From positions 89,838,001-89,902,000 of the forward strand of contig OZ024745.1 in the NCBI GenBank assembly GCA_964016885.1: a stretch of 64,000 nucleotides of DNA. The letters are read 5' to 3'. The notes under the pieces are model-generated. The model did not search any database, was not told the DNA's origin, and saw nothing but the letters and a program-made list of their open reading frames with translations. The stretch comes from Eledone cirrhosa (taxonomy: Eukaryota). This document shows positions 32,690 through 63,900 of this stretch, piece after piece. Position 1 is the first letter of the stretch. Each line of letters begins with the position of its first letter. The translations under genes and the position numbers were made by a program.

Positions 32690-32768
32690 TATATGGTCTT
32701 TAAAGCGATGAAATACCAATGATGGTAGGAAGATCACTGATGACGGACTAACTTTATTCATATGTAAC
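32690..32768 (+). ncRNA. HHR-like CUGAUGAC...GUAAC motif, family b
   Basis: TATA-TGGTCTT...AAGATCA-CTGATGAC...GTAAC; homologous to 35410; second stem weak. Confidence 0.45.
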
Positions 32769-32841
32769 CCATTAGCAACCCCGCAGCATTTTTTCTCATA
32801 TATATATATATATATATATATATATATACATACTTATACGT

Positions 32842-33590
32842 TACACATTTCAGTGGCGAAATGAAATAAATTCGTATCAGCAAGCTTATAGTTATAAGGT
32901 TGGTAGATTTGATTCTGACTTAGGGTTCTTTCTTTTTAATTGCTAACCTGTAGGTGTTGTTTTCCATACAGTAACGGTTAAACCCACATGTAATAATTCT
33001 TTACACACATCTCACTGTGTAACACACTTCTCTCTGTGTAATATATTTGTATTTGAGCTCAGTTGAAAATTCTCTGTTCTTTGAGCTAATATTATTATTA
33101 CTGTGAAGTGCGGAATACTCTAATTCCGATCCGTGTATAATTAACAAGCTCCAAATTGTTGAGCTAATAAATTCGAATGGTTGGGCTGTTCTCTCTAGCA
33201 TTTTCCCCAATTCATGAGAGCCGTTATTTGATGCAAATAACACGTGTTTTCACTCTGCTCTGGGCAGCGTGTATATTTGCGTTCTCTCTTTCCATTAGGC
33301 TAGATGAGTGGCGGGCAATTCCACACTTGCTGACTGAGGAACCTGTGGACTTGTACGCTACACATTTCAGTGGCGAAACGAAATAGATTCGTATCAGCAA
33401 GCTTATAGTTATAAGGTTGGTAATTTAAAACTCTACTTCGGAGATTTGATTCTGACTTAGGGTTCTTTCTATTTAATTGCTAACCTGTAGCTGTTGTTTT
33501 CCATACAGTAACGGTTAAACCTATATGTAATAATTCTTTACACACATCTAACTGTGTAACACACTTCTCTCTGTGTAATATATTTGTATA
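32842..33590 (+). repeat. Partial tandem repeat (517-bp period) carrying an HHR; PLE pLTR or retrozyme-like
   Basis: 32842-33050 is repeated at 33359-33590; flanked by (TA)n. Confidence 0.8.
33326..33401 (+). ncRNA. Type I hammerhead ribozyme, GUA triplet
   Basis: Stem I CTTGCTGA/TCAGCAAG, CTGAGGA, imperfect stem II, GAAA, stem III CGAA/TTCG, TA. Confidence 0.82.
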
Positions 33591-33597
33591 TATATAT

Positions 33598-59200: not shown

Positions 59201-59214
59201 GATCAGACCTCTTT

Positions 59215-62200
59215 CAGACCTTCAAGATAGTAAAGAATCATCTGTACTCTACCAACATGCTAAAATAGAACATACGAGTAAATTAGAGAACATAGAAATA
59301 AAAATAGAATCTACACACAGAAAAGACGCAATGTTTAGACAAATCACAGAGGCAATAAACATAAAAGAATTACAACCAAAATTAAATAGAAAACATGAGT
59401 GGAACAGCAACATCACAACTTACAATTAAGGACAAAATGAAAACACACACGCACATAGAACAAACAACCAACCTGTAACATGTAAATAAACAAATAAATA
59501 AACGAATATAAACACACACAGACACCCGGATGTGGCGCATGCGCAGACTGAGCACACAACACACACACAGAAACAAGATGACGTAGGACAGAACAAAGGA
59601 GAGGCACCAAAACAAAGAAAAGAATCCTCAGTCACTGAAGAGGTCACAGAATGTGTGACGAAAGAACTTTGACAATATATAAACAACCATCTGGTTATGG
59701 AACCAACCAGCCAACCGGAAATTTGTAAATTCCTAAATTTATAAATTTATTATAATAAATTGAAGTGAAAGCAACTGGTGCGTGTGTTTCTTATTGGCAA
59801 CATGACCCTCCCAAAGTATAACAATATCGGTTTCAACACACGTTTTCAGATAAAGAATCTTGCTAAACAAATTCAGAAACGAAATATCGTAAGCCTTAGC
59901 CAGGCTAACAAGATACTGAAAATCACCATGTTCTGTTGTCTTCGAAAAACAATAACATCTCGACCACTACACTTCATAAAAGAATGTGCCTCGTCCCGAG
60001 TTTACACCAACACCATCAACACCGATGTAAAAAGATTACAACTCACCAAAAAGCAAGCAGATAGGCTAAAACGAACACTAATTCTAAACATAAAAAAGAA
60101 GATCTATAGAGAATTAAGTCATCAATAAAACATAAGCGTAACCTAATACAAGAAATAACTAAGATCACCACACCAAGAGAAAAACTAATATTTATAAGTC
60201 TTATACGTCCTGAAGAACAGTACATTGTTCAAGAATGTGATAAGCACTTTAACAAGAAACTAAAGTGGCTTAAACAGATAAAACTAAATCAAGATATTTA
60301 GAGAATACCAATAGATATCCCGACAAAATTGACGGTATAAATATGGCCGACATCTCATTAACTGATGAGTTCAACAACAACAACACAAATATATACGGCA
60401 ACACAATGGTCGACTCTGATGAATTATCTGTATTACAACTGCCACCTAAGTATGCGACATTCAAGAAGGTAAATATGATTAGTTGTTTGTCAGAAATAGA
60501 AAAATCATTTACAAAATTACGTTGGAGCCTCAAAAACAAAAACAAAAACAAAAGTAACAACATACGCACACACATATACAACACACATCCCAACAACAAC
60601 AGACACACAGACACAAACAACAATAACAACAACACACACATCAACAATAATAACATACTCAGAAACAACAACAACAGACACGCAGACACAAACAACAATA
60701 ACAACACACACAACAATAATAACACACACGGAGACAACAACAACAACACACATCAACAACAGCACACATCAACAACAACAACACACACACATTCAATGCC
60801 TGTCACCACCACCACAATCTTAAACACACAGACACAGAAAACAGGTAAGGGCAGTAGCACAGAAATAAGGGAAGGTAATAGGATTGAAAGGAGAAGGGAG
60901 ACTATGGACAGAGAAAATAATCAAGACGAACACACAGACACACAAGATAGAGTAGATAATAACAATGAGCCAGAGGAAAGAGACAGGAGTAATAATGAGA
61001 GACATAGAAACAACCATGAGGCTGTTGGTGGAAATAGAAATAGAAACAACACAACTATCAATAACAATAGCACTAGTACATATAAAACAGCAGCCTGGAA
61101 CTCTACTTTTTATAATCCCTCCGATAAGTCGTTCGACCTGCGACGAGTCCACGCCACGACTTTACCATTTAACAAACGCACGCAATTGCCGTCGCAGATC
61201 GATGAACAAACAGAAGCACAATTTAGTATAGCTTGATCTAAACTTAGAAATATTATAGAACAGTATAGCAAGAAGCATAATAGAATGGAGGCCCAGCAAC
61301 TGGGAGAAAAATCTGCAAATGGCTTGCGTAAGCTCATGCAGCGCTCGCGTAATGGAGAGATAGCATGCTTTCCAACAGACAAGTCTGGCAGAATGTCGGT
61401 TGACAGTCTGCCAAACTACATCCAGGCAATGCAACCCCACATCACTAACACAAGAGAAGTAACACCACAAGAGCATGAGGATAGAGAAGAAGCCCTCAAT
61501 GCCCATATGGTGATGTGGACAAATATAATGCAGCCCAACAAAAGGACTGCCAACAACTTCCAGGCCTGGAACAATGACGTGCCAGCGTTGTATGGGCTTC
61601 GAAAAGACCATAAAACGGGCAGTGACCCTGTCACGGGACCGCCAACACGGCCAGTCTGTGGAGCTAACATTGCTAGTAACTACAGACTGTCCTACTTCTT
61701 CTCCCTTATCATACGCCCCATCATTGAAATGTCCCCAGATGTATATGACAGCACGGAGGACCTCCTCAGCAGAATCGGCGAGAGTAACCGATCTAGGGAC
61801 CTAACAAACTGCATAATAGGTAGTATGGATGTTGTGGCCCTGTATCCATCTATTGACGTGGATTTTGCTGTGGATAAATGCGTAGAAATGATCAGTGAGA
61901 GCAATGTTGAGTTCCGTGGGATTGATACCTATAGTAATAATTACCTAGACACATATGACCTTAGCAACCTGTGCCCTACAAGACCAGCAAGAGGCAGACC
62001 ACCTACCATTACCTCAATGGCCAAGAAAACCCACACAGATAGATGGAACGGGTGGACCAGAGCCATACGGACACCCGAAAACCACGATGAACTAAAGAAA
62101 ATGATTGCACATGCGGTGGGGGCCAGCATAAAATTAACCCTTAAGGAACATATGTTCAAATTTAATGGAAAAACATATGCCCAAGAGGAAGGAGCAGCCA

Positions 62201-63900
62201 TTGGTGTTAGCATTTCAGGCGCGATAGCCCACTTATTCATGGTATGGTGGGACAGTAGACTTAAACTTAAACCTAAAGAACAATTAGAAGACCACTTAAC
62301 CCTGATAATGTACTCCCGCTACGTTGATGATATAAACATCATAGTTAAAACGCCCCCACTAGAGAACAGTCAGGAATTAGAGAAAAACACAATGGAAAGC
62401 ATCCAGCAAATAGCTAACTCCATCCACCAGAGTATTAGAGTTACTATAGACTACCCAAGTAAACACCCCAACCATCGATTACCTGTACTAGACACGGAGC
62501 TCTGGTTAGATACCATTAATAACAAAAAACAAATCCTCCATTCCCATTATGCCAAACCCATGACTTCCAAATATCTGATCCACCGAAACTCAGCTGTTTC
62601 GGACCATACCAAAATCAACATACTGATTGCGGATTCGGTACGGGTGATGAGAAACGTGTCCCGCATGTGCAACCCCGAAGAACTAGAGAGACACATACAA
62701 CACTTCATCCACCGTATGCAGTTCTCTGGTTACAATCAGAGAGATAAAATCAGAGTGTATAGAGGAGCCAGAACCAAATGGGAAAAAATGGTAAATAATG
62801 ACACAAATGGGACCTGCCCCTTGTATAGGAGCAAATTTTGGAATAGAATAGAAAGAACTAGGAATAAGGCTAATAGAATAAACTCATGGTATGATAGCAA
62901 TAAATGCCAGAGTGTAATGTTCATCGATACAACCCCTAGAGGTGAATTAGCTTACAAATTTAGAAGGGCCCTAGATAAACATAAACTCAATATTAAGATA
63001 GTTGAAGGACCAGGTGCCTCCGTACAAACACTTATTAGCAAGATATACCCTTTTCAAAGACCCCTGTATAGATAAGAAATATATAACCTGTAAATTAAGT
63101 CTCCATATTAACTGTAAAACTAGAAATGTAGTATATAGCATAAGATGTACTGAAGGACAATGTAGAGACAAAAATATAGTGTACATAGGTGAGACAGCTC
63201 GTAGATTAGGGGAACAGATAAAGGAACACTGGCGAGACCTTGAAGATAGTAAAGAATCATCTGTACTCTACTAACATGCTAAAATAGAACATAAGGGTAA
63301 ATTAGAGAACATAGAAATAAAAATAGAATCTACACACAGAAAATACGCAATGTTTAGACAAATAACAGAGGCAATAAACATAAAAGAATTACAACCAACA
63401 TTAAATAGAAAACATGAGTGGAACAGCAACATCACAACTTACAATTAAGGACAAAATGAAAACACACACGCACATAGCACAAACAACCAACCTGTAACAT
63501 GTAAATAAACAAATAAATAAACGAATATAAACACACACAGACACCCGGATGTGGCGCATGCGCAGACTGAGCACACAACACACACACAGAAACAAGATGG
63601 CGTAGGACAGAAGAAAGGAGAGGCACAAAAACCAAGAAAATAATCCCCAGTCACTGAAGAGGTCACAGAATGTGTGACGAAAGAACTTTGACAATATATA
63701 AACAACCATATGGTTGTGGAACCAACCAACCAACCGGAAATTTGTAAATTCCTAAATTTATAAATTTATTATAATAAATTGCAGTGAAACAACTGGTGCG
63801 TGTGTTTCTTATTGGCAACATGACCCTCCCAAAGTATAACAATATTGGTTTCAACACACGTTTTCAGATAAAGAATCTTGCTAAACAAATTCAGAAACGA
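59215..63900 (+). mobile_element. Near full-length Neptune-like Penelope element in partial-tandem form; direct repeats 59215-59882 and 63236-63900; HHRs at 59631-59673 and 63650-63692
   Basis: Direct repeats flank an RT plus GIY-YIG ORF; ends in (TA)n. Confidence 0.93.
59928..63448 (+). pseudogene. Disrupted PLE polyprotein: (AAC)n-rich N-terminus, RT, Cys linker, GIY-YIG endonuclease; start approximate
   Basis: PTDKSG, LYGLRKDHK, PTRPV, SMDVVALYPSI, GAAIG, RYVDDI, LPVLD, NVVY..C..C..VYIGETAR; stop at 61234-61236 and frameshifts. Confidence 0.9.

Follow-up and report, generated by a model that had tools for sequence, protein, structure and literature searches.

Hammerhead Motifs in Probable Penelope-like Element Debris of Eledone cirrhosa, Including a Family with a Predicted Non-circularly Permuted Fold

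Results

Hammerhead families between the (TA)n tracts

The window, a stretch of 64,000 nt from Eledone cirrhosa (contig OZ024745.1, positions 89,838,001 to 89,902,000), possesses hammerhead ribozyme (HHR) motifs of many families together with Penelope-like element (PLE) remnants. Family E has a type I HHR with a long stem III at 33326..33401 (+) and a second, truncated copy at 32832-32888. The type I HHR of family F at 33643..33724 (-), which has a 10-nt palindromic stem III, is absent from the sites named in the original prediction, made from the letters of this DNA. Family C (type I, 39884..39926, -) has an ACTAGT stem III and a U.U closing stem II, and family G (type I, 41260..41304, +) has a ACAATTGT stem III, with C at position 4 in this copy. 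The type I HHRs of family A are located at 43963..44027 (-), with an imperfect stem III palindrome, and at 55090..55155 (+), with a ATATATAT stem III; a tandem duplicate (423 nt) of the latter lies at 55513..55578 (+). The minimal PLE-type HHR of family H at 49652..49683 (+) displays an extra A, a G10.1-C11.1 pair, an ACGT stem III and a stem I of 2 bp. An extra base after A9 together with G10.1-C11.1 is also present in family B. Family I (type I, 55832..55912, +) has long stems and a G17 that is private to this copy, as 11 of 11 other copies have C17.

The U4A core is fixed in two families, D and J. A type I HHR-like motif of family J lies at 38092..38168 (+), with a stem I of 8 bp in other copies, and a related copy with U4A and an internal duplication (score 21.3) at 41770..41862 (-). 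Family D is present as a type I HHR-like motif at 38571..38621 (-) and as its inverted partner at 39395..39445 (+); it has 16,250 exact matches genome-wide, with A4 in 100 of 100 among the matches listed. The HHR-like motif of family L (40664..40748, -) retains the core boxes, with C3 at 40740, but its stem I is broken and stem II is preceded by about 6 additional nt. This family recurs, with 41 matches.

The stem III palindromes that had been claimed (ACTAGT, ACAATTGT, ACGT and ATATATAT) are all present. Short palindromic stems III were found in families A, C, F, G and H and not in B, E, I and J. Dimer cleavage, which is established for PLE hammerheads (PMC4209133) and had been proposed here, fits part of the motifs, as 45 of 116 background matches from genome tiles are palindromic, but not families E, I and J, whose stems III are long and stable.

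Enrichment over controls

A type I descriptor was run over 32600-63800 with a score cut-off of at least 22, against 100 local dinucleotide shuffles in which the (TA)n tracts were left in place. Twelve exact-core type I hammerheads were observed, compared with 0.03 +/- 0.17 (maximum 1) in the shuffles, and allowing at most one core deviation gave 16 matches against 0.11 (maximum 2). The reversed sequence gave one match, and none was found in window positions 1-32600. Thirteen of the 14 sites named beforehand pass the descriptor where they had been placed, eleven of them with an exact core; the exception is 40664. Besides the 14 named sites, our tally includes 33643-33724, four sites of the two U4A families and four motifs of family K, described below. 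It comes to 23 motifs in 13 families, occupying 18 of the 26 islands between (TA)n tracts, and so bears out the prediction of more than 20 motifs from about a dozen families in 31 kb, on most of the non-microsatellite islands. Two weak matches, at 47409-47497 and 60406-60490, do not recur in the genome; they were taken as chance and therefore left out.

Rfam returned no hammerhead match in the window at the gathering score, and at E<=10 no hammerhead among the 150 of 228 matches listed, with none within 32600-33800. Its weak miRNA and snoRNA matches are artefacts of hairpins or microsatellites; the C/D snoRNA rows over the first family K motif mirror K-turn-like letters and score far under the gathering score. 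A tRNA search of the window found none.

The hammerhead motifs are real and not descriptor noise. That they are chance matches of a loose descriptor on AT-rich, hairpin-rich DNA has next to no probability: Rfam's silence and the two weak matches that did prove chance speak for it, but none of 100 shuffles approaches the observed count, the families recur with compensatory stems, and it is refuted already by the shuffles, the background tiles, and the reversed control and covariation of family K.

Association with Penelope-like elements

A broken PLE ORF is located at 60274..63445 (+), with open pieces of 320 aa and 612 aa (RVT_1 E 5.6e-5; best match Octopus vulgaris, 68%). After the open pieces follows an out-of-frame tail with a GIY-YIG-like motif and one stop. 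Family B flanks this ORF on both sides, with HHRs in the upstream (59631..59673, +) and downstream (63650..63692, +) pLTRs; two more lie in the left (57629..57673, -) and right (57801..57845, +) arms of a 256-nt inverted pLTR pair. The type I HHR of family B2 (42634..42671, -) follows a PLE ORF remnant (42958-43884, -) at a distance of 289 nt, and a PLE C-terminal remnant (45709-46524, -) is found about 1.7 kb upstream of the family A HHR at 43963..44027.

Proximity to PLE remnants was tested with a panel of six proteins. Family B has a same-strand remnant at most 900 nt upstream in 12 of 30 cases, against 1 downstream and 2 on the opposite strand, and 2 of 11 family B2 copies, one of them in the window, are in the pLTR position of a PLE ORF. 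Family A is weakly tied, with a remnant within 2.5 kb in 7 of 34. For all type I matches this number is 22 of 187, compared with 13-15 in controls. Only families B and B2 are thus directly tied to PLE ORFs; for the remaining families a PLE link is suggested by their anatomy. Most families have no ORF in the window, as predicted. The view of this DNA as pLTR or retrozyme debris holds in that the families recur and sit as PLE-type insertions in (TA)n, although the direct ORF tie is confined to B and B2. The stretch is very probably PLE-type debris.

Genome-wide load

From 99 genome tiles we estimate about 287,000 hammerhead motifs genome-wide; these background tiles gave 95 matches in 990 kb, compared with 1.6 in shuffles. 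In many families stem II is often closed by U.U or A-U instead of G-C. Because of an overlap flaw, a scan for six block orders undercounts type I matches; it was used solely to list SGC candidates. Exact-core motifs per 10 kb number 0.96 in the genome on average, 2.4 in the 200 kb flanks and 3.8 in the stretch, which therefore represents the upper tail of a genome-wide load. The "graveyard" is accordingly not the local oddity that it had been taken for.

A special locus, either an insertion hotspot or a piRNA-cluster-like trap that actively gathers hammerhead elements, is an improbable explanation of this density. It would account for the roughly fourfold excess over the genome mean, for flanks at about 2.5 times the mean and for the low probability (P=0.00017) of three independent tiles reaching 15 matches. 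However, the stretch was chosen for its density and neighbouring tiles depend on one another; elsewhere, up to 6 (genome tiles) and 9 (flank scan) matches fall in a single tile, all families tested are scattered across many chromosomes, and window positions 1-32600 have no match.

A family predicted to be a permuted hammerhead

In family K the core blocks occur in the order cleavage site, GAAA, CUGAYGA, which is the non-circular order SGC. This family lies at the first coordinate of the predicted hammerhead region, and the listing made there was silent on permutation. The K1 motif spans 32646..32749 (+). Its predicted fold comprises helix X (32646-50/32745-49), hairpin Y (32651-72), helix II' (32673-78/32704-09), the clamp helix Ib (32679-84/32724-29) followed by a K-turn loop, stem III (32688-92/32713-17) and stem I (32694-700/32730-36), with GAAA at 32710, CUGAUGA at 32737 and a predicted cut after A32693. 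The linker from stem I to stem II is 3 nt. The strand pairing before GAAA is predicted to be supplied from upstream via a four-way junction, and a loop with K-turn consensus is predicted to link stem III to the I/II clamp helix. For one K1 copy the minimum-energy fold contains helices X, Y, Ib and III at once; the stability of nested folds across K copies is no more than mild (z -0.5 to -2.4). An AG upstream and a GTAAC downstream of K were considered as splice or back-splice signals and set aside, hairpin Y explaining the upstream bases.

Three K2 copies were found in the window. Those at 35365..35469 (+), with G17 (35413) and a stem III mismatch, and at 57168..57272 (+), with G17 (57216), are likely dead, judging from these letters; position 17 is A, C or U in 22 of 23 other copies among those listed. 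The third (56608..56654, +) is 5'-truncated, without the cleavage-site block, and forms a partial tandem with the next copy, which follows 618 nt downstream.

Covariation and core conservation in family K

In subfamilies K1-K5, both partners change in 21 of 36 pairs, a number that none of 500 shuffles reaches, and 89.6% of cells pair, compared with 29-49% in slid registers. Changes on both sides were found in all 7 pairs of stem I and in 5 of 6 pairs of the clamp helix. Stem III has no double change within K1-K5 and one such pair within K6 (7 of 27 rows), and its letters differ between the two sets. The distant subfamily K6, retrieved by a pattern without any pairing requirement, retains all six helices, G10.1-C11.1 included, in letters other than those of K1-K5, and its pair beside A9 switches between A-U and U-A (13 and 12 of 27 rows). 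Our first register for helix X of K6 was replaced by one three bases upstream, where a compensatory pair appeared. Within K1-K5, helix II' is 78% paired with double changes in one or two rows per pair; none occurs within the larger K6 set, so that its covariation comes mainly from the comparison of K1-K5 with K6 by eye. Taken together, the covariation argues with good confidence for the K fold as drawn.

The search pattern itself accounts for part of the core conservation in our alignment (A2), though not for that of the S block, which it did not select. U16.1 is found in 36 of 37 rows, position 17 is A or C in 35 of 37 (the two with G being window copies), and within the core only N7 varies freely. 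K6 copies, chosen by DNA similarity, have the majority core at every position, and 15 of 25 are fully intact. The second pair of a contiguous stem II after A9 forms in only 1-2 of 37 K1-K5 rows, in both registers; in K6 a canonical stem II of 2 bp is possible instead (25 and 23 of 25 rows). The GA/AG tandem of a K-turn after a 3-nt bulge is present in 31 of 37 K1-K5 rows, and 5 further rows have U at 2n, as in Kt-23; A1n and A2b are found in 37 of 37. K6 has a 5-nt bulge where K1-K5 have the K-turn.

Copies and units of family K

Family K has 11,128 exact matches in the genome, compared with 0 for the reversed control, and the K6 class 796 against 47. No match to the K1-K5 pattern was found in metagenome and viral contigs. 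K units are ORF-less and tandem with one HHR each, at periods of 522-636 nt (27 same-strand cases) or 793-847 nt. The arrays are mostly of 1-2.5 copies, with PLE tails and inverted copies. Partial tandems, inverted 5'-truncated copies and (TA)n targets are seen at K1 loci, and the 3' end is bimodal, either carrying a tail of about 45 nt or lacking it; all of these traits match PLE hallmarks (PMC8557442, PMC11167929). The 5' ends of 39 K1 copies showed no pile-up at the predicted cut, in a run that was noisy because the reference contained microsatellite.

The linking of families to autonomous PLEs, proposed along with the prediction, thus succeeded for B and B2, weakly for A and not for K. Same-strand PLE remnants at most 900 nt upstream were found in 2 of 188 K cases, compared with 4 and 6 in controls, and no autonomous partner was found in flanks of about 1.5 kb. 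A PLE fragment between two K copies (L179/L180) was rejected as the ORF of K since it is on the opposite strand.

Discussion

We consider it probable that the 23 motifs of 13 families represent likely dead, 5'-truncated 3' ends of PLEs together with ORF-less units, with K permuted and its source elements cutting tandem transcripts into unit-length RNAs. The ORF-less units were likely mobilised by PLEs, whose enzymes would nick (TA)n and start copying the RNA at its 3' end; short copies would in this way retain the 3'-terminal ribozyme and accumulate between microsatellites. In K, the A9.G12 pair would stack on helix II', whose 5' strand derives from upstream, and the strand after A9 would leave into helix X; X, Y and II' would form a four-way junction beneath the core, and the K-turn of K1-K5 or the 5-nt bulge of K6 may bend stem III back onto the I/II clamp.

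Self-cleavage of K at the predicted site is slightly favoured by the core constraint, which is the pattern expected of catalysis. The fuller reading is evenly poised: K would be active, outside the six block permutations thought possible, with Block C strand-swapped and a K-turn clamp that might be switched by a host L7Ae/15.5K protein. Animal chromosomes would thereby gain their first non-circularly permuted ribozyme, with about 11,900 core-intact copies and retrozyme-like circles of 520-850 nt, in a genome with some 300,000 hammerheads. K could instead be a catalytically silent, hammerhead-derived scaffold whose fold serves a PLE or an L7Ae-family protein as a signal for binding or initiation. 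The scarcity of a contiguous stem II after A9 in K1-K5 would suit such a scaffold, as would the K1 5' ends that are not piled at the cut. Eckert et al. take this block as uninterruptible, and in a reptile PLE HHR cleavage is protein-assisted and dispensable for insertion in vitro (PMC11167929). We regard the silent scaffold as unlikely, however, in view of the conservation of U16.1, of A or C at position 17 and of every core position save N7, and of the intact majority core of K6. Less probable still is that tandem copies jointly build an ordinary or bimolecular hammerhead, the C block of one unit combining with the G and S blocks of the next, and that the local pseudoknotted order is incidental. 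The frequent tandem arrangement of K and the dimer cleavage of PLE hammerheads (PMC4209133) point that way, but every partner lies within about 105 nt, stem III is non-palindromic, X, Y, Ib and III come together in one K1 minimum-energy fold, and a clamp helix with a K-turn is sensible only in cis.

If K does cleave, the assumption that the CUGAnGA block stays joined to stem II would be broken, and non-circular RNA permutation would move from unassigned metatranscriptome circles into an animal genome. Its subfamilies would then let the origin of the permuted motif be traced, and the K-turn would be a natural answer to how stem III joins the I/II clamp. The approximately 290,000 hammerheads, which Rfam does not detect in the window, and the two large families with fixed U4A provide a natural mutational scan of the core. 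The same load opens a way to ask if PLEs depend on their hammerheads or just carry them along.

Minimal type I hammerheads in PLE pLTRs were reportedly the subject of Luense et al. in 2017, and hammerhead variants with additional helices are said to appear in the work of Weinberg in 2015. The families found here share with PLE pLTR hammerheads (Cervera and de la Pena 2014, PMC4209133) the type I core, the short or palindromic stem III and the large number of families, as well as mostly solo truncated copies, opposite-strand pairs and a few copies that flank PLE ORFs. They differ in that stem II is often closed by U.U or A-U, not G-C, in the fixed U4A of D and J, and in scale, with an estimated 287,000 in E. 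cirrhosa compared with 9,000 in Xenopus tropicalis and 126,247 retrozyme motifs in axolotl. K resembles the animal non-LTR retrozymes (PMC7229834; bioRxiv 10.64898/2026.07.22.740005) in that its tandem units lack ORFs, carry a single hammerhead and were likely mobilised by PLEs; the known units, however, measure about 150-450 nt and have type I HHRs, against 522-636 or about 800 nt and the permuted motif in K. As in the kink-turns Kt-7 and Kt-23 (PMC2790904), K1-K5 have a 3-nt bulge followed by G.A and A.G, the variant with U at 2n corresponding to Kt-23; in K the predicted K-turn is embedded in a hammerhead, where it would connect stem III with the clamp helix.

The SGC order has hitherto come from metatranscriptomes, and type-SGC/HRIMA-1 was not found in the genomes of known organisms (Eckert et al. 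2023, PMC10085705). Eckert et al. assume that the CUGAnGA block is inseparable from stem II, and leave open how stem III could join the I/II clamp (PMC10085705). Type-SGC and K agree in the S, G, C order, in the linker of about 3 nt that leads from stem I into stem II, in the helix that clamps these two stems on their far sides, and in having at least two pseudoknots. In contrast, K is chromosomal in an animal, its 10.x strand and clamp strand lie 5' of the cleavage block, its Block C is split at A9/10.1, and it adds helices X and Y and a K-turn consensus bridging stem III and the clamp. Judged by its layout, K would work like SGC, and we do not file it as a member since its stem II strand does not directly follow A9. 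In the literature searched, we found no report of the knotted, rearranged strand order predicted for K from any animal genome.

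Hammerhead motifs in the stretch and in the genome

A type I hammerhead (HHR) descriptor was run over positions 32600-63800 of the window (the stretch), with 100 local shuffles, the reversed sequence and the first 32.6 kb of the window as controls. Twelve exact-core matches with a score of at least 22 were found against 0.03 in the shuffles, and 16 against 0.11 when one core deviation was allowed; the reversed sequence gave one match and the first 32.6 kb gave none. Shuffling had been proposed as a check with the original prediction of more than 20 motifs from about a dozen families, and the signal is real and far above chance. 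A total of 23 motifs in 13 families lie on 18 of the 26 islands separated by (TA)n tracts, including family F, families D and J with a U4A core, and four motifs of family K, whose block order is rearranged. Thirteen of the 14 sites originally named passed the descriptor at their given positions; the one at 40664 failed, yet belongs to a recurrent family. Two weak matches were removed from the count because they do not recur. Rfam reported no hammerhead in the window at gathering score, none among the best 150 of 228 matches at E<=10, and none at E<=10 when 32600-33800 was searched. Residues follow the standard hammerhead numbering. The label "graveyard" is apt because many copies bear private lesions, such as G17 at 55832, where the other copies have C in 11 of 11.

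Ninety-nine 10-kb tiles, placed on large contigs at round coordinates, served as the background sample. The tiles hold 95 exact-core matches against 1.6 in shuffled sequence; allowing one deviation raises these counts to 116 and 5.4. Extrapolation gives about 287,000 exact-core motifs (bootstrap 215,000-363,000) in the 3.0-Gb assembly. Exact-core density per 10 kb is 3.8 in the stretch, about four times the genome mean of 0.96, and the 200 kb surrounding the window contain 48 matches (2.4 per 10 kb). The comparison with background thus confirms an excess but no isolated oddity: the stretch marks the high end of a hammerhead load spread over the whole genome. Counts for other animals are about 9,000 in Xenopus for minimal HHRs (PMC4209133), 126,247 in axolotl (PMC7229834) and 235 found by Rfam in giant squid; they came from other methods, so that the comparison with the present estimate is rough.

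More HHR families, absent from the window, were seen in the tiles (fragments L007-L065 and L224-L263), with stem III ATGCGCAT, ACCACTGGT, AGTACT, ATGCAT and others. Among the 187 matches of tiles, flanks and window, 60 different starts of stem III occur. Two opposite arrays 45 kb downstream of the window (L070:6526-8896), each of four 310-nt tandem units that carry a type I HHR whose stem III is ACGCGT, are a classical non-LTR retrozyme.

Family D has 16,250 exact genome matches against 0 in the reversed control, with U4A in 100 of 100 among the matches listed, and family J, with an 8-bp stem I, has U4A in all full copies shown. The text on natural core variants in section 8 of PMC3088659 does not name U4A; U10.1.U11.1, a known natural variant (PMC3088659), is common among the hammerheads of this genome. 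Either cleavage is retained by U4A cores, or large families have spread without cutting.

Origin of the type I families

The stretch had been read as debris of retrozymes or of terminal repeats (pLTRs) of Penelope-like elements (PLEs). Family B occurs on both sides of the broken PLE ORF of the window (59631 and 63650), and as a 256-nt inverted pair at 57478-57996. The closest protein match of this ORF is from Octopus vulgaris (68%), which points to an octopod host, and the tail of the ORF holds a motif that we take to be GIY-YIG-like. A same-strand PLE remnant lies at most 900 nt upstream of 12 of 30 family B matches, against 1 and 2 at control positions, and of 2 of 11 family B2 matches, while for 7 of 34 family A matches another type of PLE lies 1.2-1.8 kb upstream. 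When all type I matches are pooled, the link holds, within 2.5 kb, for only 22 of 187 against 13-15 in controls. For most families a PLE origin is therefore likely on anatomical grounds: they are truncated at the 5' end, occur as inverted copies and partial tandems, and lie in (TA)n, features set out for PLE insertions in PMC8557442. The proposal that palindromic stem III denotes dimer cleavage fits only part of the motifs, since stem III is palindromic in 45 of the 116 background matches. PLE hammerheads are already known, so the type I content is of a known kind at unusual scale, and the stretch is probably, for the most part, ordinary PLE debris in extraordinary amount.

The window also holds other elements. 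A satellite of about 19 kb (1276-19715) with a 33-nt unit, reading on the minus strand as 11-residue repeats, shows strong GC skew and no hammerheads. Mainly LINE pieces and microsatellite fill 20-32 kb, and short repeats separated by (TA)n tracts form a mosaic from 32.5 to 64 kb. Two broken minus-strand LINE copies with AP endonuclease and RT (23283-27440 and 50592-53338, the latter with an RVT_1 match at 50595-51698, 1e-29) are presumably RTE-like. At 30483-31277 the plus strand carries the C-terminal piece of a non-LTR element, with zf-RVT and with what we take to be a restriction-like endonuclease motif. A short tRNA-like stretch at 36550-36610, without an ARAGORN call, is possibly a SINE head. 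The repeated segment at 58665-58760, with relatives near 28800-30500, has a short GC hairpin, then UAA, and flanking 5-bp pairing, and is loosely HDV-ribozyme-like, with P1 not placed by eye.

Family K, a rearranged hammerhead-like motif

In the K1 copy at 32646-32749 and the K2 copies at 35365, 56608 and 57168, GGUAU-H with a stem I strand is followed by GAAA with the stem III partner, and then by the second stem I strand with CUGAYGA. In the predicted fold, the bases ahead of GAAA pair with a UCGC strand upstream (helix II'), GGAY after A9 pairs with RUCC further upstream (helix X), and hairpin Y sits between the II' and X strands. In the alignment of 37 K1-K5 rows, 89.6% of cells are paired against 29-49% in slid registers, and 21 of 36 pairs show double-sided change, a level reached by 0 of 500 shuffles, although kinship among sequences can inflate this control. 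Support within K1-K5 is strong for helices I, clamp, Y and X, thin for II' and absent for III.

Stems III and II' were tested with the distant subfamily K6, recovered by a pattern without pairing requirement. All six helices are present with letters different from K1-K5, including a 6-bp II' with G-C closing at 10.1/11.1, and the site is GUC. Within K6, covariation extends to stem III and the clamp, and the X pair adjoining A9 switches between A-U (13 of 27 rows) and U-A (12 of 27). Among K6 copies chosen by similarity, 15 of 25 keep the entire core. Another subfamily, found at L313:1491-1617 (minus) and L321:1422-1547 (plus), is intermediate between K6 and K1-K5; its clamp helix is longer, and it has a U-rich bulge.

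Exact genome matches number 11,128 for the K1-K5 pattern against 0 in the control, and matches to the K6-class pattern 796 against 47. K units, of 522-636 or about 800 nt, lack an ORF and form partial tandems and inverted 5'-truncated copies; they end at (TA)n, 15-19 or about 55-69 nt past the core, matching the PLE tail signature described in PMC11167929. No autonomous partner emerged: same-strand PLE remnants lie within 900 nt upstream of 2 of 188 K matches, against 4 and 6 in controls. Both complete K2 copies of the window carry G17 and are probably dead; the core of the K1 copy is intact. Near-identical blocks 1 Mb apart (L179 and L180, at 34.43 and 35.46 Mb of contig C1), likely a segmental duplication, each have an opposite-strand PLE fragment inserted between two K copies. 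Several inversions have their junction within the K motif itself, close to helix II' (L307/L308, L318/L319, L177, L178).

Beyond the observed motifs, counts, covariation and anatomy, we propose that K would fold in cis within tandem transcripts, with A9.G12 stacked on II' and X on Y in a four-way junction. A cut after H17 would then release unit RNAs, perhaps circles, which may be copied into nicked (TA)n by a PLE protein. Four points count against this mechanism: the 5' ends of K1 copies (n=39; noisy, with microsatellite in the reference) do not cluster at the predicted cut, nested folds of K are only mildly stable, a 2-bp canonical stem II is an alternative in K6, and one PLE is described as inserting in vitro without HHR cleavage (PMC11167929).

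Comparison with known hammerheads

A literature search, with most subscription papers outside its reach, returned no permuted hammerhead from an animal genome or from cephalopods, and no hammerhead with a K-turn. Judged by sequence, family K looks like a new, predicted hammerhead architecture, and one that is cheap to test. In K1-K5 the loop that joins stem III to the clamp helix agrees with the consensus of a K-turn, with tandem G.A/A.G in 31 of 37 rows and, as in Kt-23, U at 2n in 5 of 37; K6 has a 5-nt bulge at this place. In animals K-turns are bound by L7Ae/15.5K. In some SGC RNAs stem III joins the clamp directly, though the two are distant in the crystal structure (Eckert et al., PMC10085705); we suggest that a kink in the loop would solve this puzzle.

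Family K shares with the SGC RNAs of Eckert et al. the non-circular block order, a linker of 3 nt between stems I and II, and a helix that clamps both stems on their far sides (PMC10085705). From the SGC RNAs in the main text of that paper, whose supplements could include forms with additional helices, it differs in one defining point: bases after A9 and before GAAA pair at one position only, a second pair forming in just 1-2 of the 37 K1-K5 rows.
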